Source: Methanothermococcus sp. Ax23 (GTDB lineage Archaea > AGJL01 > Methanococci > Methanococcales > Methanococcaceae). Taken from it: a stretch of 64,000 bases of DNA. Numbering within the stretch: the first letter of the stretch is position 1; every line of letters begins with the position of its first letter. The notes beneath the pieces are model-generated. The model was not told the origin of the DNA. It was given only the letters and a program-made list of their open reading frames with translations, and did not search any database. Shown here piece after piece: positions 25,973 to 57,453 of the stretch. The position numbers and the translations under genes were made by a program. Where the stretch lies: positions 256,001-320,000 of the forward strand of contig NZ_CP157522.1 of the NCBI RefSeq assembly GCF_049075655.1. The letters run 5' to 3'.

Positions 25973-26060
25973 GCAGGGGTTGCCAAGCCTGGCCAACGGC
26001 GCTGGACTTAAGATCCAGTCCCATAGGGGTTCGGGGGTTCAAATCCCCTCCCCTGCACCA
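25973..26060 (+). tRNA. tRNA-Leu(TAA), integration target
   Basis: GCAGGGG...CCCCTGCACCA; anticodon loop CTTAAGA; long variable arm. Confidence 0.97.
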
Positions 26061-26064
26061 TTTT
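26006..26064 (+). repeat. attL (3' part of tRNA-Leu)
   Basis: Identical to 47424-47482; begins at the anticodon loop. Confidence 0.95.
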
Positions 26065-26391
26065 CAAAATTCAACAATATAGCCGATTTACAAGGTTATT
26101 GAGTAATAAAAAATTACTGGATTTAATCCAGTAAGTAAAACGATACAATAACAGAATAAAATTGAGTAAGTATCGTAAATGAATAGGTCATTTATCAAAT
26201 ATCCTCAAAAAAATTAATTGGATAGTGTGAGCTTTGCTTTTTTGGTGTTAATGATTATATTTATTTATTTTGATGGTTTAATGTATTCGGTTATTGTCGT
26301 ATTGTTTTTAGTCAATTGTAGTATTTTTTATATATCTACATTGTTTTATTTAATTGTATTAATGTATGTTAAAAAAAGAATGTTTATTTTT

Positions 26392-29300
26392 TTACTCGCT
26401 TATGAGGAACCCTCTCCGAGGTTCCAGCAGTTCTCCAATATTTTTCAGTTTTTCAATAGTTTTTTCATATACTTCCTCTGGATACTTCAACACTTCTATA
26501 ATGTATTCCCAGAGTTCTGTTTCATTAATTCCATTTCTTGCTTTTTCAATAATCTCTTCCTCTATTGTCTTATTTTCTTCCTTGAATATTTTTATGAATC
26601 TTTCCAATAATTCATCCCTATCTATTATCTTTATTGTAGCATTCTCTCGTTTTTTCTTTAATTCTTTTGAAATGTAATTGTATATTGCAGAGAGTATATT
26701 CTTTATTTCTTCAAATTTTAATTTTATTCCACATTCTTTTTGGATTTCCATTATAATTTCTTTAATGGTTATTGTTTTATTTTTTAATCCATTTCCAAGT
26801 CCATATATTTTTTCCAACACTTTTGTCTCAAACATTTTTAAATATCCTTTTTCCATCTTACTGAGGTTCTCTTTTGCACATTTAACTATATTGTATGCTA
26901 TTTTTATTCTTTTAGTGATTGCACCCCACTTTGCTGGACTGAGCTCTGCTATCTTCATGGCAATATCTTTTTGAGTTCTGGCATCATCTCCAAGGATAAC
27001 TTCAGTAATCTTTGGGAACTCTTCATGCAGTTTGATATATTCAACGACTCTTCTTGCCATTTTTATATGCTTCACAATTAGGTATTTTTCATACTCACTG
27101 AACCTATCGTAGTTATTGTATTTTAACGCATTATTTACATCCTTAAACCTTTCATCAATAATATCTACTAACTTATTTACTTCTATCTTGTTTATCTCAG
27201 ATAGTTCCTTTCTTATTTCCAATACTTCTCCAATTTCTTCATCCATTATTTTTTCTATGGTTTTTATCTCCCACCCATGCCCTGTTGTCTCATCCAAATA
27301 TTTTTTCAATAATTCAGAGTTTGAAACAATTATTCTTTCTAATTTTCGATTTGTAAGATATGCTATTTTAGCCTCATCAACTTTATACCCTCCATCTTCT
27401 CTTTTCAAAATCTGCAACTGTTCTATTAGTTTTGTAGGTTTGAGTTCTTTTTCAATATCCAATATTTCTTTATTGTATTCTGAAACTAAATACTCTTTAA
27501 ATAATGAAAAGTCATCATTTGCCATACTTAGCATCTTTTCATATCTCAACATCTGTGATGCCTTCCCCTGTTCTGTATATATTATACAAGTGTCTCCCCC
27601 ATTTCTAACTCTTGCAAGGAACTGCCTGATAATTGTGGCTGATGAAGTTTTAAGGACTGCAACAACATCTACTTTATCCTTTATATTTAGTTGAATTGTT
27701 TCGTTTTCCCCTTCCCCATTTTTAATATTTATCCCTTCTGCAATTATTCTTGTTGCTAAAATTAAACCGTCTGGAACTCTTTCACTGTTTATTATCATCT
27801 GTGCCGCTTTATCTGTTCCAACAGTCTCCTTTGTAATTTTATAAATTTCTGAATTGAAGTTGTATAATTTAAGAATTTCTTCAATAGTATCTATATCCTT
27901 TTTTGAATCTACCAATACTATACCTTTTTTACTACCTTTGTTAAATTTCATTGTGATATATTTACAAAAATCTATAATGTTGTGGAGTCTTCCTTCTGAT
28001 TCAATTATGAAAGTATTTTTAAAGTATTCTTTTTTATCTTTAAATACTGCTTTGACAACCCTTTTGTTTTGTAGGTTTATGAGCTCAGGTGTTGCAGTTA
28101 ATAATATTGAAGCATATACTTTATTCAAATACTGTTCAATATTATTTATTTCCTTTTTCCTGAACTCTTTTTGTAAGATTAAATTGTGAGCCTCATCTAC
28201 TATCAATATAATGTCTTTATCTTCTTTTAGTTGTATTTCTTCTTTTCTCTCACCTATATCGATTACATCATACTTTATATCATACATTATCCTATCCAAT
28301 TGGTTATATGTTCCTATTACTAACCTTATTTCTTTTGCATTGTGAATTCTTGTAGTGCTACCTTCATAATATGCCGCCACTTTTGTTCCTTGGGATGCTA
28401 ATGTATTGTATGTCTGCATCACTTGTGATTTATAAGGGAATAGTAAGACAGTAATTTTCCCATTATTTTCTTCGTAGATTTTTCCTATGTTATTTGTTAT
28501 TGTGTATGTTTTCCCCCTTCCAGTTTCTGCCTGTAATATCACTGGTTTATTTTCTTTTGCAGAGTTGTCTATTGCTGTTTGTAGAACCTCGTATTTCAAA
28601 TACTTTTCACATTCAACTATTACTGCATTTTTATTCTTATCCAGTAATTCTTTTAAATATTCCTCCGCCTCAACATAATCATCCACTTTTGATGAAATTC
28701 CCTTCTTTTCAATAAATTCTAATATTTTATCTTTATATGCTCCCCATAGATATGCAATAACATTTGTTCTCAAATTATTGTTATGCCAATCTACTGCTAT
28801 GGCATTATATCCTTTATTTGGATATATGGTGCAATCTGGGTTATTTCCATCATTATAGTATATTGAATAGATGCTGATGTATTTACCATTTGATTTATAT
28901 CCCACTCTTAAATAGTCAAATAATTCTATAATCCACTTACTATCTTTGTATATTTCAGTTAATTTTGCCTGTATGAATTTCGTAAATTTGTATTCTTTTT
29001 TTGTTAATTCTTTAAAATCTTTAATTTTTATGTTTGATTTTTTGAGTTTATTGATTAGTTCAAATGATTCCGTTGTTTCACTTGCTTCTTTTACCATTTC
29101 TTTATATTCTTCATTATTTATTCCGAATTTGTAGAAAAATACTTCTGGAGCTATTGGTGCTAGATTTTTTCTTACATATAATATTTTACAGTCTCTCCCT
29201 CCCTCATATTTTTCTTTTCTGTTTTTTGTTCCAGGAAGTCTATCTACTCTTGCAATATCGTACATTGCAGTGTCTGCATCATGTCCAATTTGTTCTGCAA

Positions 29301-29952
29301 TTTTGGAAAGTATTGGGAGTTCTAACCTTGATATTGGTCTATCAATGTAATAGATGAACCTCAAACCCCCTCCGGTGAATGCAATAATGTGTGGTGTTGT
29401 GTAATCATCAGGGAGCTCTGAAAGTATTTTGTTTATTTTGTCATTTATCTCATCCATGGTAGGTTCTTTTTCTTTCCACTCCTCAACATCAAAATCAATA
29501 GGTATATAAATCCATGCTGTGGCTGATTTTGAACTCCCATTTTCCGTCTGTCTTGGTGCTATCCCTATTGATACAGTTGTTAATCTTGCTCTTTTACCTA
29601 TCTTTTTTAAAATTTCATTTTCTTTTTCGTAAATTCTGTTTGAAATTGATTCAGCAATGTTTTTTATGTCATCTGGATTAATCTCTGGGATTTCTATATA
29701 TTCAGAATATGCCCAGGAGTTTCTGTTATTTGGTTTTTGGTATTTCTTTTCCAATTCAACCAAATACCTAACTTCAAAATAGTTCATGTGTTTTATTGAT
29801 TTTTTTATATCCTTTTTGAGTTCTGGAATCGTTCCATCAACTACACTCCATACTATTTTATTTCTAAAATTGTAAATTGATGCCAGTAAAATACTTATAT
29901 GTTTAGTTATTTGTTTATTATTTGGCAAATTATATGAAGTGTATTTTTCCAT
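26392..29952 (-). CDS. Replication protein: RepB'/AEP-like primase domain fused to an SF2 helicase
   Basis: IDFD, FTGGGLRFIY and D.ARVDRLPGT.N.K; AETGRGKT, DEAH, LTAT, T..IAEGINI and QFLARVR. Confidence 0.8.
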   Translation of the reverse strand: MEKYTSYNLPNNKQITKHISILLASIYNFRNKIVWSVVDGTIPELKKDIKKSIKHMNYFEVRYLVELEKKYQKPNNRNSWAYSEYIEIPEINPDDIKNIAESISNRIYEKENEILKKIGKRARLTTVSIGIAPRQTENGSSKSATAWIYIPIDFDVEEWKEKEPTMDEINDKINKILSELPDDYTTPHIIAFTGGGLRFIYYIDRPISRLELPILSKIAEQIGHDADTAMYDIARVDRLPGTKNRKEKYEGGRDCKILYVRKNLAPIAPEVFFYKFGINNEEYKEMVKEASETTESFELINKLKKSNIKIKDFKELTKKEYKFTKFIQAKLTEIYKDSKWIIELFDYLRVGYKSNGKYISIYSIYYNDGNNPDCTIYPNKGYNAIAVDWHNNNLRTNVIAYLWGAYKDKILEFIEKKGISSKVDDYVEAEEYLKELLDKNKNAVIVECEKYLKYEVLQTAIDNSAKENKPVILQAETGRGKTYTITNNIGKIYEENNGKITVLLFPYKSQVMQTYNTLASQGTKVAAYYEGSTTRIHNAKEIRLVIGTYNQLDRIMYDIKYDVIDIGERKEEIQLKEDKDIILIVDEAHNLILQKEFRKKEINNIEQYLNKVYASILLTATPELINLQNKRVVKAVFKDKKEYFKNTFIIESEGRLHNIIDFCKYITMKFNKGSKKGIVLVDSKKDIDTIEEILKLYNFNSEIYKITKETVGTDKAAQMIINSERVPDGLILATRIIAEGINIKNGEGENETIQLNIKDKVDVVAVLKTSSATIIRQFLARVRNGGDTCIIYTEQGKASQMLRYEKMLSMANDDFSLFKEYLVSEYNKEILDIEKELKPTKLIEQLQILKREDGGYKVDEAKIAYLTNRKLERIIVSNSELLKKYLDETTGHGWEIKTIEKIMDEEIGEVLEIRKELSEINKIEVNKLVDIIDERFKDVNNALKYNNYDRFSEYEKYLIVKHIKMARRVVEYIKLHEEFPKITEVILGDDARTQKDIAMKIAELSPAKWGAITKRIKIAYNIVKCAKENLSKMEKGYLKMFETKVLEKIYGLGNGLKNKTITIKEIIMEIQKECGIKLKFEEIKNILSAIYNYISKELKKKRENATIKIIDRDELLERFIKIFKEENKTIEEEIIEKARNGINETELWEYIIEVLKYPEEVYEKTIEKLKNIGELLEPRRGFLISE

Positions 29953-29964
29953 AATCTCCCCATT

Positions 29965-30927
29965 TTATAAATTTCTTCTAATTGTGTTTAGTAAAATATC
30001 TGTTCGCTCTTTACTATGTGCGTAGAATAATGTTGTTTCTAATGAACTATGTCCCAAGTATTCTTTTACAATTTCAATTGGAACACCATTGTTCAGTAGT
30101 TCAACTGCCCTACCATGTCGTAGGGAATGAACAACTATTCTTTTATTTTTTGGAATCTCTCCCTCTTTCTTTAATTCATTCACGGCTCTTCTGAACATCT
30201 CACTAACCCAACCTCTTCTTACTTTCCCTCCTTTATCGTTCTGGAATATTGGGTCTTTGTCCTCTGTTTTTATGTTATATTTCACATATTCTCTTAATGC
30301 CATTAGTGTGTCCTTAGAACACACTACAAATCTTTCTTCACTAGATTTTGTATTTTTAATTCTGAACCTCCCCTCTTCAAAGTCGCAGTCTTCATAAGTT
30401 AAATTTATAATTTCTGAAATTCTGCATCCTGTGTCCCACAACATTCTGATAATTAAGGCATCTCTCATATTTGTTCTTCCCCTTCTTTGTAGAATCTTTT
30501 TTAATATTTTGTTCAATGTTTTCGAATTTACTGCATCATAGTGCTTTACTTCAAACTTTGTATATCTTCTTCTTTCTCTGCATTCCATTTCAAATTCCTT
30601 GAAATTTTCCAATCTCATAAGTCTATAAAACACTTTTAATAGTTTGAAATACTGACCTACTGAATTTCCCAATTTTCTTTCGTTTTCCAAATATTTGAAG
30701 AATTTACTGAATTCCTGTTTATTTAATTGGTCTGGTTCTTTGTTTATCCTCTCATAGCAGTATGAGAGAAAAACTCTGAGCCTTGATATATCACTTTTTA
30801 TTGTTGTCTCTTTTATTCTGTCAAATTCCCTTTCTTCTCTGAACTTCTCTATCCATTTGTCTTGGTTTGATAGTTCTACCTTTTTTTTATCAGGATTGAT
30901 AAGAATTAGATTTTCAATATCCTTCAT
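29965..30927 (-). CDS. Tyrosine integrase (MJ0367-like)
   Basis: TGCRISE, HSLRH and LGH...T..Y; N-terminal core-binding domain present. Confidence 0.93.
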   Translation of the reverse strand: MKDIENLILINPDKKKVELSNQDKWIEKFREEREFDRIKETTIKSDISRLRVFLSYCYERINKEPDQLNKQEFSKFFKYLENERKLGNSVGQYFKLLKVFYRLMRLENFKEFEMECRERRRYTKFEVKHYDAVNSKTLNKILKKILQRRGRTNMRDALIIRMLWDTGCRISEIINLTYEDCDFEEGRFRIKNTKSSEERFVVCSKDTLMALREYVKYNIKTEDKDPIFQNDKGGKVRRGWVSEMFRRAVNELKKEGEIPKNKRIVVHSLRHGRAVELLNNGVPIEIVKEYLGHSSLETTLFYAHSKERTDILLNTIRRNL

Positions 30928-31204
30928 GGATTCCCTCTTCTTCTTGGTAGATAATACAATTGATTACAAAGTTTGCTCCTTCCCCAAATTTGTTTAATAT
31001 TTCAATTTCTTTATCTGATAGTGTTAGTAATTTTTTGTTAGTTAATTTTCTCTTTTTTATTTCTGCTATCACTCTTGGGTCTATGCCTTTGTAATTTTCT
31101 GCTTTATGTAGATAGTATCTGAGCTCTCTTGCACCTATGTTTTTGTAGATGTTAAAATATTTTTTTGAATACTTTTTCCCTTTATCCTTGCTCATGCACT
31201 TCAT
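30914..31204 (-). CDS. MJ0366/DUF2540-like ribbon-helix-helix protein
   Basis: F.IYKNI..R.LRY.LHK.EN and LTL...E..I....G..AN...NC match the recalled MJ0366 sequence; overlaps the integrase start. Confidence 0.8.
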   Translation of the reverse strand: MKCMSKDKGKKYSKKYFNIYKNIGARELRYYLHKAENYKGIDPRVIAEIKKRKLTNKKLLTLSDKEIEILNKFGEGANFVINCIIYQEEEGIHEGY

Positions 31205-31287
31205 AGTTTCCCTTCATACTATTTTTGTAGAGCTCTACAAGTGGTAGTAATACTCACATTGTAGAGCTCCTATTGTTGCAGTATTAC

Positions 31288-31644
31288 TTACAGTATTCGA
31301 TATGTTCCAGTGTTCGGTTCGTATATTTCCCCATCTTCTATTAGTAATTTTATCGTTTTACCTACCTCTTTTAGAACCCTTTCCTTTAATCGCTCATAGG
31401 TTATCTCATCATTTTCCATGATTATGTTTAATATTAATTCCTTGAATGTCTCTGGAACCCTATCAACTTCAAACATATTACTTATATTCTCTTCATCAAT
31501 AATGTATCCATCATCATCTTCATCGACATTCTCAAAATATCCGCAGTTTAAACAATACCAACCATGCTCGTCTTCATCCCATACCATAGGACCATTTGGA
31601 CAATTAGGACAATGGGGGGCATTGTCATCAAACACTTTTGCCAT
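31288..31644 (-). CDS. Zn-ribbon plus C-terminal winged-helix protein
   Basis: CPNC...CLNC, acidic linker, GEIYEPNTGTYRIL terminus. Confidence 0.75.
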   Translation of the reverse strand: MAKVFDDNAPHCPNCPNGPMVWDEDEHGWYCLNCGYFENVDEDDDGYIIDEENISNMFEVDRVPETFKELILNIIMENDEITYERLKERVLKEVGKTIKLLIEDGEIYEPNTGTYRIL

Positions 31645-31648
31645 GATT

Positions 31649-31828
31649 TCACCTTTTCCATAAATTGATATAAATTCTGCCCCCGTTGTTCCTTCTATTT
31701 TTATACTCTTTGCTTACTGAACAGCTCCATCTTTTCAGTTTTTTGAATTCTTTTGTTATCTTTTCAACCGTGTATTCTGCATCTTTTTTCTCTGCCTCTG
31801 AATTCCACATGACTCTGATATTTACCAT
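31649..31828 (-). CDS. Small hypothetical protein (59 aa)
   Basis: Hand translation MVNIRVMWNSEAEKKDAEY...SKEYKNRRNNGGRIYINLWKR; RBS AGGTG; below the track cut-off. Confidence 0.6.
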   Translation of the reverse strand: MVNIRVMWNSEAEKKDAEYTVEKITKEFKKLKRWSCSVSKEYKNRRNNGGRIYINLWKR

Positions 31829-32069
31829 GTTTGCACCTATTTATGCTCTTTATAACCACTTTGAATTGTTTTTTAGTAAGTCCATACTTAGCATCTATCT
31901 TCTTTTTCCACTTCTCAAACTCTCCCTTATTTACTAACTTTACCTTTACTCCTCCTAGACATTCTAAAACTTCTTTCTCTTTTTGAAATGCCTTTTTTCC
32001 ACTTACTGCTCCATAGCTATCTATCTTTTCATTTTTATAAACCAAATAATACATCATTTTATCCCTCAT
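31764..32069 (-). CDS. Hypothetical protein
   Basis: Translationally coupled to the upstream ORF; 3' part overlaps the next ORF. Confidence 0.5.
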   Translation of the reverse strand: MRDKMMYYLVYKNEKIDSYGAVSGKKAFQKEKEVLECLGGVKVKLVNKGEFEKWKKKIDAKYGLTKKQFKVVIKSINRCKHGKYQSHVEFRGREKRCRIHG

Positions 32070-32296
32070 ACATCTGCATTCAAGTTAATTTCCAATAATG
32101 GTTTATTTTTACATTTTTTTATCCATCCTTTTTCTATCCATTCATTTAATACCTCCCTTACATTTTCTTTATTTTCCTTGATGTATTGTTTTATTTCGTA
32201 GAGCGATACTACTGGACAATTTTGTTGTTTAATTTCTTTAAACAATTCTTTTGAGTCCATTTTCACCCCCTCTTTGTTTGAATCATTGCCAGTCAA
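32066..32296 (-). CDS. Small winged-helix-like protein
   Basis: VSLYEIK...VLNEWIEKGWI pattern; operon context. Confidence 0.55.
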   Translation of the reverse strand: MTGNDSNKEGVKMDSKELFKEIKQQNCPVVSLYEIKQYIKENKENVREVLNEWIEKGWIKKCKNKPLLEINLNADV

Positions 32297-32603
32297 AACA
32301 ATATTCTTTCACTTCTCCATCATAGTATATTCTCAACAGTTTTGAGCCCCACTTGATGACATGAATAGTTTGTGTCATATCTGGCTCTCTTTTAGCAATG
32401 CTGTCAGGATATTCTGAACATGGAATTGGATCGGCATATTTTTTTACAACTTCATCCTCCATTTTTGTTATGTTGTGTTGCAGTCTTTCTCCTACTGGCA
32501 TTGCTTCATATCTTGCATTCAATTCATCGCATATCTTTTTTCCCAATCTTCTAATGTGAACTAGTTCTATTATTCTTCTTTTCTCTTCTCTTGATATTGC
32601 CAT
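32283..32603 (-). CDS. Hypothetical protein
   Basis: RBS GGAGG; operon context. Confidence 0.65.
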   Translation of the reverse strand: MAISREEKRRIIELVHIRRLGKKICDELNARYEAMPVGERLQHNITKMEDEVVKKYADPIPCSEYPDSIAKREPDMTQTIHVIKWGSKLLRIYYDGEVKEYCFDWQ

Positions 32604-32604
32604 T

Positions 32605-32760
32605 TTATACCTCCAATTTATTTATTTCATCGTCATTTCCTTCTTCTTCTATAACATATACATTTACACGCCTTCCAATGTATTTTTTAGGAACTAATAC
32701 TCGCCCCGTATTGCATGACCGTTTTACTTCTTTGTTTTCCACGATTAATTTTTCCTTCAT
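32605..32760 (-). CDS. DUF2080/AbrB-like small DNA-binding protein (51 aa)
   Basis: Hand translation MKEKLIVENKEVKRSCNTGRVLVPKKYIGRRVNVYVIEE...; RBS GGTGA. Confidence 0.75.
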   Translation of the reverse strand: MKEKLIVENKEVKRSCNTGRVLVPKKYIGRRVNVYVIEEEGNDDEINKLEV

Positions 32761-32911
32761 AGTTTCACCATACTATATAATTATCCAATAGTGTAATATT
32801 TTCCACTATATATCTTTGGTGCATCTTTCATATATATACTTTTCTATTGGATTACATTCCATTATTGGATAGTATTACCATAATGTTTAATGTAATAGTA
32901 TCGCAAAATAT

Positions 32912-33310
32912 TTGGACAATAGCACATTAAAGACAGTGGAAACGATGCTTCAAACAATATCCAAAAAGAACAGCAGAACAGTAATGTTATTACTTGCAAA
33001 ATTTGACAAATTACATTTTGGAGCATTAAAGAAAAAGTCAAAAATAGAAGGCAAATCTTTAACAAATGCTTTAAATGAACTACTCGGTGAAGGCTTAATA
33101 CAAAAAGAATACGAAGACCCTACAAAAAGAACAGCGAAGGTTTATTATTCCCTAACTCCACTTGGCAAGGAAGCATTAAAAATATATAAATTAGCAGAAG
33201 AGTTGGAAAGGAAAAAAGAGACGGTTGCAAATTCAGTTATTATCAATGGGGATGTTAATGGGGGAATTATTATTGGTAATGCTTCAAAAGTCAATATAAA
33301 AAAACATTAA
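32912..33310 (+). CDS. HxlR-family winged-helix regulator
   Basis: LHFGAL...SLTNALNEL..EGLIQK...VYYSLTPLG. Confidence 0.85.
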   Translation: MDNSTLKTVETMLQTISKKNSRTVMLLLAKFDKLHFGALKKKSKIEGKSLTNALNELLGEGLIQKEYEDPTKRTAKVYYSLTPLGKEALKIYKLAEELERKKETVANSVIINGDVNGGIIIGNASKVNIKKH

Positions 33311-33339
33311 TATTATCATAATTATCATTTGGTGATAGT

Positions 33340-33472
33340 ATGCCTCCAAAAACCTAAGGGAAAATTAAGGAGAGCATTAACTGGTGATGGTAGGAAGAAA
33401 CCTTCAAAGTTTTTTAAAAATAATGTTAAAGAAGCCTTGGGGAAGTCAAATTCTAAAAAACGCAAAAAGTAA
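33340..33472 (+). pseudogene. Small basic ORF interrupted by one extra A
   Basis: RBS GGTGA + ATG CCT CCA AAA A CCT...; removing one A gives a 43-aa MPPKPKGKLRRAL...KKRKK. Confidence 0.45.
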
Positions 33473-33492
33473 TAAAGTAATGGGGGTTCAAC

Positions 33493-33858
33493 ATGGTAAA
33501 ATATTCTCTTGATGAAAAAATTTTAGTTAAGCATAATATTACATTAACCGACAATGTGATGCAGATTAGTAGATTTAATATAAAAGCGTATGTTTCAATC
33601 GATAAAATTTCAGCCGTCGAATTGGATTTAAGATGGATGATTATCAATTTTTTAATAGCATTTCTATTGTTTTTGTTTGGGGTATTTATTAAAGGTAGTT
33701 ATTCAATGATTTGTTTTATATTGGGTTTTGTTCTTGTTATTTTTGGCTATTTTGGTGCAATAGTTAAAGTTTATCCTATTGGATATAAAGCCGTTGTAAT
33801 TATGGGGTCTTATCATTCCATGAAAGAATTGTTTTATGAACTTAGGAAATTAGTTTAA
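33493..33858 (+). CDS. Two-TM membrane protein
   Basis: Two hydrophobic helices within a PH-like beta pattern. Confidence 0.65.
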   Translation: MVKYSLDEKILVKHNITLTDNVMQISRFNIKAYVSIDKISAVELDLRWMIINFLIAFLLFLFGVFIKGSYSMICFILGFVLVIFGYFGAIVKVYPIGYKAVVIMGSYHSMKELFYELRKLV

Positions 33859-33867
33859 AGGGAAATC

Positions 33868-34284
33868 ATGGACAGGGATATAATCGAAACCGTGCTAAAA
33901 GAACATGGTTTGTTAAAATATGAATATAGGGGGATTGCAAAGGCGTTGTCTAAAATCATGAATCGTAATGAATCCATCAAAGCCGTTTTTCTAACTGACG
34001 GGGGGTATTGGATTCTAATGAGTAGGAGAATTATTATTGTCTCATCTGGATTTTTAGGACATGGTGTTAGTGTTGATGAAGTTATTAATCATAGTCAGAT
34101 AGAACGGTTGTATTATAATATCAATAAAGGGTTTTTCTCATCATCTATGGAACTTAAAATAAAATTAAAAAAAGAAAAAACTCGAACCTATAAAGTAAGT
34201 AGTAATTATAATTTTAATTATGTTGCCAAAGCAATTGATAATTTAAAATATGCCAAATCCAGAAGGAAAAAGAAAAAATCTTAA
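33868..34284 (+). CDS. Bacterial-PH-like domain protein
   Basis: L...E.I..VF...ILMSRRIII...GFL...I..SQI.....KGFFS pattern. Confidence 0.6.
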
Positions 34285-34724
34285 TCTTTTTTATTTCTTA
34301 ACTCATCCCTAATCTCTTTTAAAATTTCTTTTATTTCATCCTGTCCTTTTTTAACATCTTCCAAAACTCCAAAAATCATTTTAATATATTTAACTCCTTC
34401 ATCGAGTTTTTTATTTAATTCAAGCAAATCATCAGCAGAGATTCTATTTATTCCTTTTGGAAACTCAATATATGTTTTTAATTCTTTCTCTTCTATTCTA
34501 TCGATATTTATAAGATTGTCGTCTTCTTCCAACTCTTTAATTACTTCTTTGAATAATCTCTTCTTTTTTTCAGAGTTGAAGTTTGCTAAAATCCTAACTG
34601 TTCCATCCTTATAATTATAAACTACACCATCAATACCTAAACCTCTCCCAATATCCTCTATCCTATCTCTAAAACCAACATGTTGGACTTTACCATATAT
34701 TTTTAACTCGTAAGTTGTTGCCAT
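34281..34724 (-). CDS. Acylphosphatase-domain protein with C-terminal coiled coil
   Basis: GKVQHVGFR and G.VYN..DGTV motifs. Confidence 0.85.
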
Positions 34725-34856
34725 ATTCTCACCTTTTAATGTTATATTATAACATAACTTCTATATATTTTATTCGATATTGTCAATGTAGTATCGGAGC
34801 TCCTGGAACATAGTGATACCAGGAGAGGGTGAGCTCTGCATGATATATCATGAGAG

Positions 34857-35369
34857 TTATTCCACATACTCCCGGAGCTCCGACAACAACTCATACGCTC
34901 GGTTCAAATCTCCAACTTCAACAGCATGTTCCAACTCACTAAATAATATTTTCACAGAAGCAATGTTGTATAAATCATTATCAATAAACACTTCCTTAAA
35001 CTCATAAATCAACTCTTTTAATTGTTCTTTTTTCATGTTTATTATGTCATCCTTTACATAATCATATACTGTGGATTTTGGAATTCCGACCATCTCCGCA
35101 GTCTCTCTTATTGAATGCCCTTCTTTTATAAGGTTTAATAGTTCTCTCTTTTGAGTTTCATTTATTTTCTTTTTCCTTCCCTTTTGTTTAGATTTAACTT
35201 CAATAAATATTCCTGTGTTCTCTTTAAGAATTTGGATTTTATATGCCATTTTGGGATGGTTAAATACTGATTCTGGCATTCTTATAAATACCAAATCTTT
35301 ATTGGAATCTACAATGATTTTGTTTATTTCCTCCCAACTAACTATTTTATTAATGTCCTTTTCTATCAT
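34857..35369 (-). CDS. Resolvase-type HTH protein (paralogue of 56050-56583)
   Basis: KGRKKKI...EGHSIRETAEMVGIPKSTVY. Confidence 0.85.
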   Translation of the reverse strand: MIEKDINKIVSWEEINKIIVDSNKDLVFIRMPESVFNHPKMAYKIQILKENTGIFIEVKSKQKGRKKKINETQKRELLNLIKEGHSIRETAEMVGIPKSTVYDYVKDDIINMKKEQLKELIYEFKEVFIDNDLYNIASVKILFSELEHAVEVGDLNRAYELLSELREYVE

Positions 35370-35920
35370 CCTTCTCTCCTCAAAACATCCTCCGCTATTT
35401 TAGATTGAGTATATTTTAAAATCATGTCTATTTTTTTATGCCCTGTTATTGATGCCACAATTTGAGCAGGATATTGCTTTTTACCAAGGTATGAAATGTA
35501 GGAATACCTCAAAGAGTGTGTATTTATCCCTAAGTTTGTTAAATACCATGATGATGCATTGTTTGCAATCCGTTTAATGGTTTTATTTTCCCATTCCAAC
35601 ACCACATCTTTTGTCAGTTCAACATCTCTATTTGATATTTCCTTTGGAAGAATGAGTTTTCTCATTGCATTATCTTTCCTTTTTTCCACTTTAACAGATA
35701 CTTCATGTTCTTTTGATTTTGTAAATTTGATTAGTCCTTCAATCGCTTCCCCTATTCTGCAACCATTTCTCAATTGTATGAGTCCCAAAATCAAATAAGC
35801 ATATTTTTTCCTGTCGTTTTTATAAAGGGGTTTCTTGTTTCTCAACTGTTCCAGTTGTTGGATGAGTTTTTGTTTAGTTTCTTCATAATCCAATCCCATA
35901 TCCCAGTCATTTTCTCCCAT
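35366..35920 (-). CDS. Short tyrosine recombinase, catalytic domain only (paralogue of 56838-57452)
   Basis: QLRNGCRIGEA, HSLRY and TGH......Y motifs. Confidence 0.88.
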   Translation of the reverse strand: MGENDWDMGLDYEETKQKLIQQLEQLRNKKPLYKNDRKKYAYLILGLIQLRNGCRIGEAIEGLIKFTKSKEHEVSVKVEKRKDNAMRKLILPKEISNRDVELTKDVVLEWENKTIKRIANNASSWYLTNLGINTHSLRYSYISYLGKKQYPAQIVASITGHKKIDMILKYTQSKIAEDVLRREG

Positions 35921-36073
35921 GTTGATTACCTCTCATAATGTTAGAATGTCCGAAAAATACTAACTTAAAATAATAAAACTATCCTTTGATTAGTTTAATC
36001 GAATGTCTAAAAAAATAATCCATTCCAAAAATTTCCAACTAACAAACTATACATTTTGTTAGGTCGTATAGTT

Positions 36074-36328
36074 TCAACTAATCCCTAAGAGTTTTAGTTT
36101 TTCACGGAATTCTTTAATTGGGATTTCATAACGCCATTCTCCAAATACGACATACACCATTCTTTTTTTTCTATCGTGGCTAATCGGTATGCTCCGAATA
36201 TCATCCATCTCTTTAACATAGCCTCTTATATACGCTTCCTTATAATATCCGTTGTATGAATGATGCCTTTTTCTATCTCTCTTGTGTAATTTTTTAAAGC
36301 ATTTCCGTTTCATGTTGATCATGTTCAT
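36074..36328 (-). CDS. Basic hypothetical protein
   Basis: ORF coupled to the upstream ORF. Confidence 0.5.
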   Translation of the reverse strand: MNMINMKRKCFKKLHKRDRKRHHSYNGYYKEAYIRGYVKEMDDIRSIPISHDRKKRMVYVVFGEWRYEIPIKEFREKLKLLGIS

Positions 36329-36509
36329 CCCTTTTTATCTTATAAACTGTCCCGTCTTCTTTAACTAAAATCACTTCTTTATAATTGCCCTCTATTTCTT
36401 CTGCGTCAATATTGAGAAAACAGTTTGCAGATATTAAAATTCCTTCAGTTGAGAACTTTATAGCATCTATTTTCTTAACATTGAATTCTTTTAAGTTGTT
36501 TTTGTCCAT
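36294..36509 (-). CDS. Hypothetical protein
   Basis: Start moved to MDKNNLKEF after RBS GTGAT. Confidence 0.55.
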   Translation of the reverse strand: MDKNNLKEFNVKKIDAIKFSTEGILISANCFLNIDAEEIEGNYKEVILVKEDGTVYKIKRDEHDQHETEML

Positions 36510-36629
36510 AATATCACTAAAAGCCCATTTGATTAGTTTAATCGAGTAAATTAAGTTAGAGTATAATATGTTATTAAAAGAATATTGAATGCTGATGATA
36601 TATAGAGCAATTTCCAATAAGTGCTTTCT

Positions 36630-36896
36630 TCATTCCATTTCTTCTTCATCTTCCTCAATATCTTCATCATACCCCATCTCCTCCAAATATTTTCCATATT
36701 TCTTCAACATTTGCATCGTATATTCAACATCTTCTTTGAGTGCCTGCCACCGTGCCAGTGCATCCGTGTAATCTTTCCATGTTTCTTCATCAAGATCTGC
36801 ACCAAAAATTAAAAAACACTTTTCAATTTCATTATCGCTGCCATAAACCTTCTGGTATATATGCCCCATTGCGTTTATGATGTCATGGATATTCAT
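36630..36896 (-). CDS. Acidic hypothetical protein
   Basis: Coupled to the upstream ORF. Confidence 0.6.
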   Translation of the reverse strand: MNIHDIINAMGHIYQKVYGSDNEIEKCFLIFGADLDEETWKDYTDALARWQALKEDVEYTMQMLKKYGKYLEEMGYDEDIEEDEEEME

Positions 36897-37252
36897 TATT
36901 CCACCTTTCTGTTTTTAACAATGTCATTTATAAGTTCCAGGTCACTTAAGATTTCAAGACATTTTTCCTTAACTTCTTGCGAGTACGAAATGTGATATAT
37001 TTCTTTCAACCTCGTCCCTACTCGAACCATTAGCCTACTGTATAAGTTATCAACATCAATAACAGGTTCTTTTTTAGGCCTTCCTCTTTTGGGCTGTTCC
37101 ACAACATCCACACTTTCTCCATCAGGACTATCCGGAGCTCCTACGTGTTCATCATCATTCACAATTATGAGTTCATCTTCTTCACTTTCTTGGCTAGATT
37201 CTATTCCTCCAAATAGTTCTTCATCATCACTTATCATCATCAAAACCCCCAA
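36896..37252 (-). CDS. Acidic protein with an AT-hook
   Basis: PKRGRPKK motif after an acidic tract. Confidence 0.65.
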   Translation of the reverse strand: MGVLMMISDDEELFGGIESSQESEEDELIIVNDDEHVGAPDSPDGESVDVVEQPKRGRPKKEPVIDVDNLYSRLMVRVGTRLKEIYHISYSQEVKEKCLEILSDLELINDIVKNRKVE

Positions 37253-37988
37253 CGGTTTTTATAAAGTTGTCAAAACTAAATCCTAGTTCTACACCCGAAA
37301 ACTCTTTTGATTTATTTCCTTTTTTCCTATCGGTCTGCGTTTCTTTACCTTGATATGCCCTCATAGTAGGATTTAATTTAAGAGATGAATCAATAACTCT
37401 CGGTAATTCAACACCCAATTTTTCAAGTGCTGCCTTATACATTGCAGCTTCCTGCAATGCTATTTCATATAGCTGTCTTCTTCTAGGGTCTAATACTTCC
37501 AAAGGTTTTGCCTCTTCGGTGTAATTGTTTATTATCTCAAAACTATGTGCATAGATAGTAATTATTTCATCAGATAGATCAATACATCCAGCAGGAACAT
37601 GCACCACCCTATACTGTTCCTTTTTTCCAAAGATTAATGCTTTAAATGCTGAAATTATTTCTTCAATAAAATCAGGGCTTCGTCTCCTATACAATATAAT
37701 ATGAATATCATTTGGCCGTGGAATTAATGCAATGGGGTATCCATATATTTTTTCTCCATGTCCATTGTTCCAAATCAGTAACTTTTGTTTTACTTTATAG
37801 GGAGTTAGTGAAGCCATTGCAATTTTTTCATTTTCTATTTCCTCTTGCTTCTTTTTTATTAATTTCAAAGGATTTTTTGTTTTCCCATCAGATTTGTTAT
37901 ATTTAGGTTGTGACTTATTATCCCCATTTTCAGACAATTCTTCCTTTTCCCCCAATTCTTTTTCCTTAGATTTTTTAAATCCAAACAT
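37227..37988 (-). CDS. Element protein downstream of the ATPase (t26-15p position)
   Basis: RBS AGGTGA; position in the module. Confidence 0.7.
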   Translation of the reverse strand: MFGFKKSKEKELGEKEELSENGDNKSQPKYNKSDGKTKNPLKLIKKKQEEIENEKIAMASLTPYKVKQKLLIWNNGHGEKIYGYPIALIPRPNDIHIILYRRRSPDFIEEIISAFKALIFGKKEQYRVVHVPAGCIDLSDEIITIYAHSFEIINNYTEEAKPLEVLDPRRRQLYEIALQEAAMYKAALEKLGVELPRVIDSSLKLNPTMRAYQGKETQTDRKKGNKSKEFSGVELGFSFDNFIKTVGGFDDDK

Positions 37989-37996
37989 TATATCAC

Positions 37997-39337
37997 CTAC
38001 AACGATTGTGGATGCCTGTAAGCTATCCTTTCAACATATTGCTTATCGTATGCAAAATACCCCCTGAATTTATTTTTCTGTTTCATTTTTTGGTATTCGT
38101 CAATAGAAAATGATTCTTCCATTCCAATATCATCTTCATCAATTCCGGGAATCATTTTTTTCAACAGTTTTAAGTCTTCAGGACTTGCTATTTTTCCAAC
38201 AATTCCGATGTGTGTGCATCCCTCAATAAGGGATTTATTCAAACCTGCCATATATTGAGTAGCACCAATTAGATTGATACCCATGGACCTACCTTCCCTA
38301 TATATTTTATTAATTGCAGACAGGCCCACAGGATTATTGGCAAAGTGCTGTATCTCATCCACAAAGAAAAAAATAGGTATCTTTAACTTAAACGCAGATT
38401 TAACTGCCATATCTACAATCATTTTAAAAATAAGATTTTCTTCCTCTGTTGTAAGGTCTGAATTTTGGGAAAAATCAATCACATTTATCCGCTTGTTTGA
38501 AACATACTTAAAAAAACTCTCATCTTTTGAAAATAAAGGGTCTTTTTTCAATCTGTCCATAGTTTCTTCAATTCGTGAGTAAGTCCTGGAAGGTTTTTCT
38601 GGGTTATCCCATTCTAATGCTTTTTCCAATACTTTATCAGGGTCCCTAATTTTTTCAATATTCCAAATTTTCCTTAATCTTTCACCATGTAAAGCCCCAC
38701 TCCCAACATGAGTTAATTTCTCAATGAATGAAAAATCAATACTGCTGTATTTTATTTTCGCTTCAATTACTTCCGTTTTCCACCCATTATCTATTTTAAT
38801 ATTATTTAACCTCCTCCTTGGCCTGAATACAAAACGATTAACTGGGAATGCATAAGGAGACAATCCAAAATAACCTAATATTGTATTATTACCTGCCCAT
38901 TTCGTATATTTTCCCAATATATTAGGCATTCCCATTGCAAAATCTCCGGGGCTTCCGTATAAGTGAGGATATTTATTCATTAACTCCACATATTTTATGA
39001 TATAATCCCATGTATTTTTCCCATATTTTTTATACAGCATTTCTTTTGAATATTTTTGAGATTCCTTATAATATATTTCTTTGATTTTTTCTGCCTTTGA
39101 AACATCAATTTTCCTCTCAAACACAAAAATAATTGGAGCAATTCCTTTGTTAAGATATGCTGACCATATGGATTCAATTAGTGCCCTCATTACTGTTGTT
39201 TTTCCAAATCCTGAACCGCCCAAAAATAACATGTGATTTGCTTCCTCTGTTTTAAGGTCGAGTGTTCTTCTTGTTTTATTGCCTGTTGCTCTACCATATA
39301 ATGCATGACCTCTCCCAAGATATATTGGAACCTTCAT
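37997..39337 (-). CDS. HerA/FtsK/VirB4-like P-loop ATPase
   Basis: GGSGFGKT, FFFVDE and REGRSMG...ATQ; start moved to MKVPIY after RBS GGTGGTGA. Confidence 0.9.
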   Translation of the reverse strand: MKVPIYLGRGHALYGRATGNKTRRTLDLKTEEANHMLFLGGSGFGKTTVMRALIESIWSAYLNKGIAPIIFVFERKIDVSKAEKIKEIYYKESQKYSKEMLYKKYGKNTWDYIIKYVELMNKYPHLYGSPGDFAMGMPNILGKYTKWAGNNTILGYFGLSPYAFPVNRFVFRPRRRLNNIKIDNGWKTEVIEAKIKYSSIDFSFIEKLTHVGSGALHGERLRKIWNIEKIRDPDKVLEKALEWDNPEKPSRTYSRIEETMDRLKKDPLFSKDESFFKYVSNKRINVIDFSQNSDLTTEEENLIFKMIVDMAVKSAFKLKIPIFFFVDEIQHFANNPVGLSAINKIYREGRSMGINLIGATQYMAGLNKSLIEGCTHIGIVGKIASPEDLKLLKKMIPGIDEDDIGMEESFSIDEYQKMKQKNKFRGYFAYDKQYVERIAYRHPQSL

Positions 39338-39486
39338 AATCACCACCAAAATAGACCACTTGATAAATAGCAAACTTATCCAAAATAGTTATTATTTGTA
39401 AAAAATAGGCATGTGAGGTTATTTAATGAATAAAAAAATTATATAAATGCGTGTAGTAGTTAAAAAATAAAAACTAAAAAAAGTCT

Positions 39487-40101
39487 TCATACTGGATAGT
39501 CATACCTTTTTTTGTATCTTACAAATCCATATCCTATAACTATACATGCTAATCCACCAAATATAACTGCAGTTTTAAAATTAGAAACATCTTTCTTCCA
39601 TTCATTGTAAGCAGATATGTAATCTTCTTTTGTTTCATTTGATTGTTTGTTGATTAAATCAGTTATAATGTCTTTGTATTGTTCATTTTGTTGTTTAATG
39701 ATTTCATTTTCTGCTTTTAGTGTTGTAATTTGTTTTTGTAAATTTGTAATGTTTTTATTAAGTTCTATATTCTTCTTTTTGTAAGAAATATACTCTGCTA
39801 ACAATTTGTTTTTCTTATCTAGCTCGTTTTGTAATTTTGTCATGTTTTTTTGCAGCTCTGCTATCAATACATTATATGCCTTGACCATGTTGGCATCATA
39901 TACAATTACTGTTTTATTTCCCTCAATTTCCAACTTTTTAATGATTTGAACTGTTAAATTCTCTGGAAGATTCTCATCAGTATCATTAATCCAGAATACT
40001 TTTTGTTCCCCCGTCTGTGCATCTATTAATGTTATATTCTTTGCACTCACTCCTATGGGAACTGCCATTATTATCAGTATCAAAACTAATCGCTTTAACA
40101 C
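39487..40101 (-). CDS. Coiled-coil protein with signal peptide and C-terminal TM anchor
   Basis: N-terminal signal, heptads, C-terminal hydrophobic helix plus basic tail. Confidence 0.8.
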   Translation of the reverse strand: MLKRLVLILIIMAVPIGVSAKNITLIDAQTGEQKVFWINDTDENLPENLTVQIIKKLEIEGNKTVIVYDANMVKAYNVLIAELQKNMTKLQNELDKKNKLLAEYISYKKKNIELNKNITNLQKQITTLKAENEIIKQQNEQYKDIITDLINKQSNETKEDYISAYNEWKKDVSNFKTAVIFGGLACIVIGYGFVRYKKRYDYPV

Positions 40102-40113
40102 AATGCAATCACC

Positions 40114-40572
40114 TCAACCAAATAATCCTTGTATCTTACAATATCCACTCTGCCTATCTACTAAAACATACCCCATGAAATCGCCCTTAGTGTTCTTTCT
40201 ACCAAACAGCAATTTAAACTGCCAGTAATAATTTCCATCTTTGAATTCTTCAATGCTACCTGGGTCAACATCAAGATGATAATTATGCTCTTCCAACATC
40301 TTGTTGTAGTTGTCATCAAGATACTTCCGTGCCAAATTTAACGCCTGAACCCCACCGATTGAATACTTTTTTGGTGGAGTTGATAGAACCACAAAAGAGC
40401 CATCTGGATAACGAATTGTTTCATTCACAATAATGTATCCTGATGAAGGATAGCCAAACTCCAAAAGTTTTTCTTTAATAATATCATCATCGGATTGTTG
40501 GAAACTCATGACCGTGAAAGTAATTAAAAAAATAGCTAAAAAAGAAAAAAATAGAATTCTTAAAACTTTCAT
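40114..40572 (-). CDS. Membrane-anchored/secreted protein, PepSY-like C-terminus
   Basis: N-terminal TM; AL.LA..YL...YYWQF...VLVD..SG pattern. Confidence 0.7.
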   Translation of the reverse strand: MKVLRILFFSFLAIFLITFTVMSFQQSDDDIIKEKLLEFGYPSSGYIIVNETIRYPDGSFVVLSTPPKKYSIGGVQALNLARKYLDDNYNKMLEEHNYHLDVDPGSIEEFKDGNYYWQFKLLFGRKNTKGDFMGYVLVDRQSGYCKIQGLFG

Positions 40573-40582
40573 ATTATCACTC

Positions 40583-41104
40583 TTACTGAGTGCTTATGTT
40601 AAGAACTTCTGAACCATTTTCTGGAACTCTGTATATCGTGTTGTTATATAACACAGTTGTATAGTAGTAGAGCTCGGTTGCAGTATCATTTGTAATTGGA
40701 ATGGTTGCGGTTGTTGGCAATGTAACATTAGTTGCAATGTATGACTCTGTGAATGTTGTATTATCATAGCTCGTAAATACTGCTATTTGTGATACCGATA
40801 TATTATCTTGTGAAGATGTTATTGAAACAAGAGAACTATTTGTTGAATTATCATAAATTGCAGCAATTGAGAAAGACAACTGATTTACAACTGTTAAATT
40901 ATCTGTTGTGTTTGTAGTTTGATTAATAGTTTCATTAAATGTTAAATTGTCTGCTGTTGTAGTGTTCGTAGTGCTGTTTTTTAGGAAGTCAAGGAGGAAA
41001 CCGCCGCCATCACTACTATGTGAGCTCATCCAGAACGCTCCAATACATGTTAATACTAATGCAATTACAAGCCCGATTGTTATATTACGCTCCATATAGA
41101 CCAC
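40583..41104 (-). CDS. Thr/Asn-rich surface glycoprotein candidate
   Basis: N-terminal TM; many N-x-S/T sequons. Confidence 0.75.
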   Translation of the reverse strand: MVYMERNITIGLVIALVLTCIGAFWMSSHSSDGGGFLLDFLKNSTTNTTTADNLTFNETINQTTNTTDNLTVVNQLSFSIAAIYDNSTNSSLVSITSSQDNISVSQIAVFTSYDNTTFTESYIATNVTLPTTATIPITNDTATELYYYTTVLYNNTIYRVPENGSEVLNISTQ

Positions 41105-41351
41105 CTACAATAGATTTAATGCTTTCAATTATTCCATTAAGGTCAAGAACTCCAAAATATGAGAGTGCAGCAGCTACAATTATAACGCATACTAACACCC
41201 ATAAACTCCTGAGGATTATTGCCCCAATCGTAAAAAATGCAACTGCAACTATCCACCATTGCAAAAAGATACCTGAAAAAATCCCCAATAAGAAAAATAA
41301 AATTGCATGATTTTCCTTCTCATTTTCAAGTTTTTCAAGAAAACTCTTCAA
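41085..41351 (-). CDS. Small integral membrane protein
   Basis: Highly hydrophobic; RBS GGTGA. Confidence 0.7.
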   Translation of the reverse strand: MKSFLEKLENEKENHAILFFLLGIFSGIFLQWWIVAVAFFTIGAIILRSLWVLVCVIIVAAALSYFGVLDLNGIIESIKSIVGGLYGA

Positions 41352-41355
41352 CTTA

Positions 41356-41493
41356 TCACCCCTTCTTTTTGGATTTTTTGGATTTTCTCTTTTTCAGCAT
41401 TTCAGACCTATCCGCTTCAATCACATTTCCATTTTTATCCACATAATAGAATTTTCCTTTCTTTTTCTGTATTTTTCCAACTGTTCTTGCCAT
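41356..41493 (-). CDS. 45-aa highly basic CC1-like DNA-binding protein
   Basis: Hand translation MARTVGKIQKKKGKFYYVDKNGNVIEADRSEMLKKRKSKKSKKKG; RBS GGTGA; fills the operon gap exactly. Confidence 0.75.
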   Translation of the reverse strand: MARTVGKIQKKKGKFYYVDKNGNVIEADRSEMLKKRKSKKSKKKG

Positions 41494-41497
41494 AATA

Positions 41498-56583: not shown

Positions 56584-56768
56584 ATGAATACCTACATATC
56601 ATCTTTTTTTAAATTTTTTAAACTATATTTTTTATTATATATTTATTTATATTCATTATAGCTATAAATTTAAATAAATTGCTAAATATATTATTGTATT
56701 TTTTAGTGTAAATATTTACATACACACTTTAAAAAAATACCTATTTAGTTCAGAAATTTTTTACCAAT

Positions 56769-56795: not shown

Positions 56796-56837
56796 TTTTA
56801 TATATGAGCTCCATAATATACATATACTGGTGATAAT

Positions 56838-57452: not shown

Positions 57453-57453
57453 A

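Follow-up and report, generated by a model that had tools for sequence, protein, structure and literature searches.

This report concerns two adjacent genes, one for a short tyrosine recombinase and one for a helix-turn-helix (HTH) protein, which occur together twice in a window of 64,000 nucleotides from Methanothermococcus sp. Ax23 (contig NZ_CP157522.1, positions 256,001 to 320,000). One pair lies in an integrated plasmid of the pT26-2 family, hereafter the element, and the other on the host chromosome. A composite DNA site, consisting of a palindrome and a motif of about 18 nt, was found beside every such pair, and related sites occur on small plasmids. The pair and its site look like an undescribed plasmid and chromosome recombination system. 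We put the chances at about even that recombinase, HTH protein and site form a recombination module comparable to Xer/cer, which would probably serve multimer resolution.

As shown in Table 1, the two genes are in tandem in the element and divergent on the chromosome. The two recombinases are 41% identical (78/189, E 2e-44) and share the motifs QLRNGCRIGEAIEG and GINTHSLRY, and the two HTH proteins align end to end (residues 1–169 with 1–171) at 40% identity (70/173, E 5e-44), which bears out the initial annotation in its description of two homologous pairs in different arrangements. The window genome (G000; 1.67 Mb in two contigs) holds exactly two copies of each gene, and its only other tyrosine recombinase detected with PF00589 is the full integrase of the element, which had been recognized from the start.

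Table 1. Genes, sites and repeats of the window and of plasmid C2 (open reading frame, ORF; att, attachment)
Feature	Position	Strand	Basis or remark
Element short tyrosine recombinase, catalytic domain only, 184 aa	35366..35920	-	ORF, PF00589 match
Element HTH partner, 170 aa	34857..35369	-	ORF; 4-nt overlap with recombinase stop
Chromosomal HTH partner, 177 aa	56050..56583	-	ORF; gene order kept in G027, G033, G026
Chromosomal short tyrosine recombinase, 204 aa	56838..57452	+	ORF; divergent from HTH gene
Site E1: palindrome AAACTAATCAAA-GGATAG-TTTTATTATTTT (35996-35967), AA, motif GTTAGTATTTTTCGGACA (35964-35947)	35947..35996	-	Sequence
E2, second motif copy: 9-bp inverted repeat AAACTATAC..GTATAGTTT, atypical 13-nt spacer, then GTTAGTTGGAAATTTTTGGAA	36023..36074	-	
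Exact 18-nt copy of E1 left arm and outer flank (TTTGATTAGTTTAATCGA on + strand)	36528..36545	-	543 nt from first copy
Chromosomal site: motif GTTCAGAAATTTTTTACC (56748-56765), AA, palindrome TTGTTGCCTTA-TGTATCG-TAAGGCAACA (56768-56795)	56748..56796	+	Cross-genome comparison
C2 site A: perfect AAAATAATCAAA-TTATTA-TTTGATTATTTT + GTTAGTAATTTTTGGACA			Element type
C2 site B			Host-chromosome type, 80% identity over 51 bp to chromosomal site
C2 site C			Type of G030, G034, G035 (other species of genus)
Integrated pT26-2-family plasmid in tRNA-Leu(taa), 21.4 kb	26003..47482	.	62-nt direct repeats
62-nt repeats of tRNA-Leu 3' part	26003-26064, 47421-47482		
Element full integrase	29965-30927	-	PF00589 + SAM-like N-terminal domain
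T26-6p-domain protein	42635-44665	-	PF22092, PF22265, PF20984

The short recombinase retains a complete active site. In an alignment of 39 family members, R55, K80, H135, R138 and Y170 are invariant, H161 is kept in at least 90%, and an N-terminal W6-D7 motif is also conserved. The PF00589 profile matches residues 46–174 of the element protein (profile positions 28–169) with 30.5 bits, above the cut-off of 27.1, and the chromosomal protein scores 24.6 bits, under that cut-off, with which whole-genome scans agree. The AlphaFold2 model of the element protein (predicted local distance difference test, pLDDT, 93.1; predicted template modelling score, pTM, 0.89) is a single catalytic domain, in which only two helices precede the first catalytic arginine, residue 55. 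Its best Foldseek matches are staphylococcal integrase, XerH, HP1, P2, XerA and SSV1 integrase, with template modelling (TM) scores of only 0.4–0.57; the targets are tyrosine recombinase catalytic domains or whole enzymes. By its catalytic set and modelled fold, the short recombinase can be placed in the tyrosine recombinase superfamily, and it is predicted to cleave DNA. The 'simple' tyrosine recombinases, Xer included, consist of a core-binding and a catalytic domain according to passages of Smyshlyaev et al. (2021, PMC8138268). Neither Pfam nor the model gives a core-binding domain in the short recombinase, so the R-K-HxxR-H-Y set does occur without one, as had been read from the ORF. All 57 homologues are 105–234 aa long, and a longer or fused form was not found among 633 candidates, which is weak evidence.

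The HTH partner is composed of an N-terminal alpha/beta domain, a GR[KP]KK arm, an HTH of the Hin/resolvase type and a C-terminal helical part. HTH_7 matches residues 64–104 of the element protein (E 1.5e-8), and with 35.1 and 27.3 bits both window proteins exceed the cut-off of 23.8. When the family profile was compared with the PDB, the gamma-delta resolvase DNA-binding domain (E 1.1e-5) and Hin (E 0.0037) were matched. G64, R65, T100, K113 and F143 are invariant in the alignment of 20 rows; the first two lie in the arm, and T100 lies in the third HTH helix. In the AlphaFold2 model of the element protein (pLDDT 89.4), 41 HTH residues were placed by Foldseek on the Hin domain 1ijw_C with 34% identity and a root-mean-square deviation of 2.3 (E 0.35). 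The whole model gave no significant Foldseek match, and the N-terminal 59 residues gave neither a significant structural match nor a Pfam resolvase-domain match. An exhaustive phmmer search returned 10 full-length relatives, all of 170–229 aa, the remaining matches being to the HTH segment only. A complex prediction for recombinase and HTH protein gave a score of 0.12 (mark, 0.32), which counts neither for nor against binding.

Two other roles of the HTH protein were considered and rejected. It is not taken as a serine recombinase, because Pfam does not find the catalytic resolvase domain, nor as an excisionase or directionality factor of the element integrase, because the pair is 4.4 kb away and the chromosomal loci of G026 and G033 have no nearby integrase.

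The linkage of the two genes was followed through 40 Methanococcales genomes, in which the recombinase query gave 21 strong places, corresponding to 20 genes in 16 genomes, since two places are the halves of one G035 gene cut by contig ends. An HTH gene adjoins 17 of the 20 recombinase genes, nine times in tandem and eight times divergently, and the claim that the linkage survives a change of orientation is thereby confirmed. The pairwise identities of the recombinases and of the HTH proteins correlate with r = 0.70 (16 pairs, 120 comparisons that are not independent). Only one solitary intact HTH gene was found (G007:1217285), and a few further copies are pseudogene fragments. The HTH family also stands beside nine genes of a second, unrelated family of catalytic-domain-only recombinases: seven in the genus g2, one in G037 at 416 kb and one in G007 at 1.11 Mb. 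These proteins have about 185 aa and match PF00589 with 84–95 bits over profile positions 2–169 of 172.

The recombinase family extends far beyond the HTH family. It was found at 34 related loci, 29 of which are outside Methanococcales, in hosts that include Desulfurococcales, Thermoproteales, Thermoplasmata, Aenigmatarchaeota, Nitrososphaerota and a few bacterial metagenome-assembled genomes (MAGs). At none of these 29 loci, 19 of them with at least 600 bp on both flanks, does the HTH family stand beside the recombinase, and no shared family of neighbouring genes was found there, only scattered small ORFs resembling ribbon-helix-helix proteins or CcdA (L059/L060, L084) and a multi-HTH_7 protein at L077. 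The pT26-2 family plasmid pGE2 of Pyrococcus (L165/L167, NZ_MN477947.1) carries the short recombinase at 200–718 of the record without the HTH gene and, across the record origin, directly upstream of a 373-aa integrase (22822–23943). In pMEFER01, the tandem pair is present, and its annotation goes no further than "tyrosine-type recombinase/integrase" for one gene and "helix-turn-helix domain-containing protein" for the other. The co-occurrence proposed for the two families is thus tight in Methanococcales; elsewhere the families occur independently, which speaks against the proposal there. An obligatory partnership is not supported by these gene distributions.

Two arrangements of the recombinase in other hosts are recorded here for themselves. 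At L077 (2099–4260, a Sericytochromatia MAG), a recombinase relative is followed by a 433-aa protein with at least five HTH_7 units, the sole jackhmmer match to the HTH family outside Methanococcales; a pairing with Hin-type HTH domains may have arisen here independently. On Desulfurococcales MAG contigs (L063 2180–3775, L080 4640–5974, L074), the short recombinase adjoins TnpB/OrfB_IS605-like genes, and one Desulfurococcales MAG has at least four recombinase copies, which hints at a mobile unit there.

The composite site emerged from the comparison of the regions upstream of the recombinase genes. The palindrome has arms of 9–12 bp and a spacer of mostly 6–7 bp, and the conserved, A/T-rich motif lies 2–3 nt from it. 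The arms vary by recombinase lineage and stay symmetric. Site E1 of the element lies 27–76 nt upstream of the recombinase ATG, and its layout, in which the palindrome is followed after 2–3 nt by a motif near GTTAGAAATTTTTGGACA and, 20–30 nt further, by the ATG, is also seen upstream of the recombinase in L005, L006, L007 and L008 and on other replicons; the site of L007 is a perfect 11-6-11 palindrome, AAGTAATCAAA-GAACCA-TTTGATTACTT. On the chromosome, a TATATA stretch and then the recombinase ATG follow the palindrome. This palindrome (11-7-10) and its motif are single-copy on the chromosome, like a single Xer/dif site of the 11-6-11 type. The inverted repeats noticed earlier next to the pairs therefore exist and are conserved across related loci.

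The arms are of the types TTGCCTTA, AAAACTTA, TTAACTT, TAATCAAA and GTTGGACTTT, according to the recombinase clade. The arms TTGCCTTA/TAAGGCAA are found in G000, G026, G027 and G033, AAAACTTA/TAAGTTT in G030, G034 and G035, TGTTAACTT/AAGTTAACA in G039, and GTTGGACTTT/AAAGTCTAAC in G005 and G002. The palindrome of G003:C2 is TTTTAACCTTA-CGGCCA-TAAGGTTAAAA, and the orphan recombinase gene of G007 also has a palindrome, CTGAACTTT-CCTGAA-AAAGTTCAG, with the motif.

The searches for these sites differed in their specificity. A generic scan of the two loci for inverted and direct repeats gave mostly A/T-rich chance matches, and the real sites emerged only from cross-genome comparison. The palindrome pattern TAATCAAA-N6-TTTGATTA with 2 mismatches was as frequent in the 40 genomes as its reversed control, apart from one exact match on G006:C2. 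The motif search with 2 mismatches was partly noisy, so that only matches with an adjacent palindrome were used and those in G008, G012, G013 and G017 were dropped as chance. A further palindrome, GGAGCTCC, occurs 13 times in the 64-kb window against 0.16 expected from shuffles and is not specific to recombinase loci.

The distribution of the two halves of the site suggests which protein reads which. In loci outside Methanococcales, a CTTA-N6-TAAG palindrome lies within 250 nt upstream of the recombinase in 7 of 23 cases, and the same pattern was found nowhere in the remaining 136,414 bp of these loci (palindromes counted had symmetric arms of 7 or more with no more than 1 mismatch). In pGE2, TTAACTTTC-ATAC-GAAAGTTAA stands upstream of the short recombinase. 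The motif behaves differently. Its exact pattern, GTTCAN{1,2}AATTTTTTACC, has 9 matches in the 40 genomes, and the reversed control has 0. In each of the 7 genomes of the genus g1 (13 genomes) that have the chromosomal recombinase, one match precedes that gene, which accounts for seven, and the other two are on plasmid C2 of the window genome; the 6 g1 genomes without the recombinase (completeness 64–99%) have none. A related motif precedes 7 of the 8 second-family recombinase genes examined, and no match with up to 3 mismatches was found in 31 loci outside Methanococcales (179,512 bp).

Because the palindrome also precedes recombinase genes in lineages without the HTH family, and because its arms follow the recombinase clade, it is assigned to the recombinase; the motif is assigned to the HTH protein because it was found only where the HTH family occurs and precedes second-family recombinases too. 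We infer from this comparison that the palindrome is read by the recombinase and the flank motif by the HTH protein. The initial annotation had proposed that the HTH protein supplies site recognition in trans, and that proposal, taken as recognition of the core site, does not agree with the comparative pattern.

Loci in which the two genes have different histories agree with this assignment. G038 and G039 have HTH proteins that are 94% identical and the same motif, and their recombinases are 54% identical with differing palindromes. Between G038 (L013) and G026 (L016), the recombinases are 84% and the HTH proteins only 45% identical, and the recombinase-side arms are alike. The palindrome of G038 looks like a hybrid, and the genes that flank the same intergenic site in G038 (L013), G039 (L020) and G026 (L016) are discordant. 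These lineages appear, as judged from the sequences, to have swapped one of the two genes at the site or close to it.

Sites without the genes were found on small replicons. The second contig of the window genome, C2 (7,732 bp), has a 98-bp terminal overlap, which indicates a circular plasmid. It shows no trace of either gene (tblastn E above 0.1), and it carries three composite sites of three specificities (Table 1). On G005:C3 and G015:C3, the sites share the arm type with the module resident in their own genome. The spacers differ between plasmid and resident sites (TTATTA vs GGATAG; TGGACA vs TGTATCG), which is easier to reconcile with recombination among copies of the same plasmid than with recombination of a plasmid with the chromosome. 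C2 also has a 668-aa ORF, a stretch of which is 68% DNA-identical to the gene of the 1186-aa helicase of the element, three other ORFs without a Pfam match, and a 1.7-kb stretch without an ORF of at least 70 aa, which holds sites B and C and a strong hairpin.

In the proposed mechanism, a recombinase dimer would bind the palindromic core, where strand exchange would take place with the spacer as the crossover region. The HTH protein would bind the flank motif through its Hin/resolvase-type HTH and, in the minor groove, its GR[KP]KK arm, and as an accessory subunit it would recruit or activate the recombinase, make the site asymmetric and possibly repress the operon. The composite site would be the substrate, and the likeliest job would be multimer resolution, for plasmids and elements and perhaps for chromosomes too. 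Genes and site are found together on the pT26-2 element, on other plasmids and on some chromosomes; small plasmids, which carry sites only, would borrow the resident enzymes. The assignment of the two halves to the two proteins, recombination at the site and resolution as its purpose are each suggested by comparison of sequences. A broader reading can be offered tentatively, and it is possible rather than probable: short recombinases with a CTTA-N6-TAAG-type core of their own beside the gene would be widespread in archaea, two Methanococcales recombinase families would have teamed independently with one Hin-like HTH protein, gene swaps would re-assort recognition, and small plasmids would carry site arrays of multiple specificities. 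The whole would be an archaeal counterpart of Xer/cer, and a full-length Xer-type recombinase was indeed not found in the window genome.

Several observations weigh against a resolution module. G015:C3 has two identical direct sites, the DNA between which would be lost if a resolvase were constitutively active. Two sites are present on G006:C2, and the recombinase and HTH genes were not found in G006 with the queries used. Three recombinase genes have no adjacent HTH gene (G007:C1:11291, G030:C42, G037:C1:91861), and the occurrence of the recombinase family without the HTH family in other archaea means that the HTH protein is not generally required. The two site types have the motif on opposite flanks of the palindrome, so that the proteins have no one fixed arrangement. 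Nor is the chromosomal copy essential, since 13 of the 40 Methanococcales genomes have no tyrosine recombinase at all, and contigs covering the chromosomal site bear no trace of recombination. Moreover, an operator with a promoter would account equally well for a palindrome and an adjacent A/T-rich motif in front of a gene.

This last point leads to an explanation that we consider unlikely, although it has several points in its favour, namely that the HTH protein is a transcriptional regulator or autoregulator only, with the palindrome or the motif as operator, the motif as promoter, and the gene-less sites as HTH-controlled promoters, while the recombinase acts elsewhere or alone. The sites lie 25–130 nt upstream of the recombinase ATG in most loci. 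The BRE/TATA regions of archaea (BRE, transcription factor B recognition element) are A/T-rich, and so is the motif. The 18-nt half-site copy at 36528–36545 is 16 nt upstream of the ATG of another ORF, and the absence of the HTH family beside the recombinase in other lineages would also be expected. However, the recombinase is also preceded by palindromes of this geometry in loci that have no HTH gene, and in G002:C1 and G005:C1 the site is downstream of the operon and points towards it. Sites B and C of C2 have no ORF of at least 70 aa downstream for more than 1 kb, and the exact 17–18-mer occurs nowhere else in the 40 genomes, which argues against a generic promoter.

A module that integrates and excises DNA is quite improbable. 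It would form and resolve cointegrates between plasmids, elements and chromosomes or capture small modules at the site, with the HTH protein as directionality factor. Tandem arrays of sites with different cores are consistent with such an activity (E1/E2, sites B/C of C2, and two sites upstream of the second-family recombinase of G007), as are the discordant gene histories and the hybrid-looking palindrome described above for G038, G039 and G026. In the element, the two 18-nt copies of the E1 arm bracket a 543-nt segment with two small ORFs, both of which are missing from the 99%-identical element of G037. The limits of this indel relative to G037 are not at the core spacer, however, and cassette integration at E1 was rejected as its origin for this reason. 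The spacer difference between plasmid and resident sites should block crossover, and the element already owns an integrase, for which there are att sites at the tRNA. Neither a junction nor a cointegrate turned up in the contigs, which is uninformative.

An inversion switch of the FimB/FimE type, in which the short recombinase would flip a segment such as an intergenic promoter with the HTH protein as cofactor, is very improbable. Catalytic-domain-only invertases such as FimB and FimE are known, the HTH domain is of the Hin type, and the pair occurs in both tandem and divergent orientation. Each locus nevertheless has one composite site and no inverted pair around a segment, the chromosomal palindrome and motif are single-copy on the chromosome, and the same arrangement is seen in four related genomes and on one metagenome contig (55965–57658). 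The split recombinase of the initial annotation, if taken to mean that the HTH protein is the detached core-binding domain of an ancestral full-length enzyme, can scarcely be upheld: the 4-nt overlap suggests translational coupling in the tandem form and the recombinase does lack a core-binding domain, but a fused or longer relative was not found, the order from recombinase to HTH is the reverse of that from core-binding to catalytic domain, the HTH is of the Hin/resolvase type and not of the SAM-like core-binding fold, the short recombinase stands alone in many archaeal lineages (all 29 loci outside Methanococcales), and one HTH family serves two recombinase families.

The resolution module proposed here can be compared with known systems. 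Xer recombination at cer and psi employs accessory DNA-binding proteins on one flank, and plasmids carry the site and borrow the host enzyme; in XerS/difSL, the site adjoins the recombinase gene. Like Xer/cer, psi, XerS/difSL, XerH/difH and archaeal XerA/dif, the present sites have a palindromic core of about 28–30 bp with, in most of them, a 6–7-nt spacer. The position of the site next to the gene, the proposed one-sided flanking accessory and the plasmids with sites only are further likenesses, and XerH and XerA rank among the best structural matches of the short recombinase. Unlike Xer, the short recombinase has no core-binding domain, and unlike in Xer/cer, the accessory would not be a housekeeping protein but a Hin-type HTH protein that is dedicated and co-transcribed. 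Nor is the module universal as Xer is, given the Methanococcales genomes without a tyrosine recombinase. FimB and FimE have about 180–200 aa, are essentially the catalytic domain alone, and act as helper-dependent invertases on two inverted sites with host architectural proteins. The short recombinase resembles them, by description only, in its minimal size and in being the catalytic domain alone, and differs in the single composite site per locus and the dedicated partner gene. The HTH protein resembles the DNA-binding domain of Hin and gamma-delta resolvase (HTH_7) in its GR-x-x arm followed by a three-helix HTH; unlike these proteins, it has no serine catalytic domain, its HTH is in the middle of the protein, and its partner is a tyrosine recombinase.

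If this module exists as proposed, it would be a new architecture of tyrosine recombination, in which a minimal catalytic subunit acts on a variable core and a Hin-type HTH protein on a constant flank. Both the function of the second 'integrase' of pT26-2 plasmids and the way in which small Methanococcales plasmids free of recombinase genes could stay monomeric would be explained. A compact, thermostable two-protein system with naturally varied specificities could also serve as a genetic tool in methanogens, if the model holds. The predicted sites are short and explicit, which makes the model directly testable. The papers on pT26-2 integrases (PMC6972569, PMC8371274) deal with the same host elements, and the short recombinase, the HTH partner and the composite site are not mentioned in the searched passages of them. 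No description of the pair or the site was found in the parts of the literature that were searched; the supplementary gene tables on pT26-2, which lay outside the search, may list the genes.

On the chromosome, G000, G027 and G033 share the order of radical-SAM gene, recombinase, HTH gene and nicotinamide mononucleotide (NMN) adenylyltransferase gene, part of which is also found in G026, and the proteins of the pair are 71–96% identical between genomes, like those of the flanking housekeeping genes. The recombinase is present in 7 of the 13 genomes of the genus. The idea of a domesticated chromosomal copy is favoured by the conserved context and by identities like those of housekeeping neighbours. 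Near-universal presence, which would be expected of Xer/dif chromosome dimer resolution, is not seen for the chromosomal recombinase, and replacement of XerA as an essential function was rejected on the same count of recombinase-free genomes. Cumulative GC skew varies only weakly, its extremes falling near 175 kb and 825 kb, and is uninformative on whether the chromosomal site, at 312.7 kb, lies at the terminus. In the Logan contigs of X1, X4 and X8, neither a joint nor a loose end was found at 56748–56796, and one X4 metagenome contig spans 55965–57658 in the reference arrangement. A contig of an RNA library covers 57094–58718; it does not show transcription of the recombinase.

At 58690–59100 (G000:C1:314690–315100), beyond the chromosomal recombinase gene, several hairpins in succession form a structured repeat, about 400 bp long. 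The genome has at least 25 copies of it that are near-full or large partial ones (blastn, 76–99% identity), and its hairpin CTCGCTTACGGTAGTAAGCGAG was found 23 times in G000 and in none of the other 39 Methanococcales genomes. G033 is without the repeat at the corresponding position, and TTTAT flanks the insertion. The depth of the repeat is very high in DNA and RNA contigs, and it has no Rfam match. Its hairpin shares both the TTCTCGCTTA..TAAGCGAGAA arms and the CTTA-N6-TAAG geometry with the palindromes beside the recombinase in L067 and L071, possibly by chance.

The assignment of the element to the pT26-2 family follows from its T26-6p-type protein, integrase and att repeat; some core genes were examined. 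In the passages available from the description of this family, it has a T26-6p-type core protein, a tyrosine integrase and tRNA att repeats of 50–60 nt (PMC6972569). Both pMEFER01 and pGE2 are members, and the papers on the family treat, in those passages, the full-length integrases and tRNA att sites (Badel et al. 2019, PMC6972569; review PMC8371274). An acylphosphatase-domain gene (34281–34724) lies immediately downstream of the HTH gene in the element and one gene further on in pMEFER01 (L166 3993–4433), so that the neighbourhood of the pair is kept between two pT26-2-family elements. Beyond the right att repeat, a second copy of the tRNA-Leu 3' end and flank is 82% identical to the first (47455–47526 vs 47590–47661) and may have been left as a scar when something integrated at this tRNA before. 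Directly upstream of the att tRNA-Leu, a 342-aa ORF (24858–25886) has a DDE transposase domain (PF01609).

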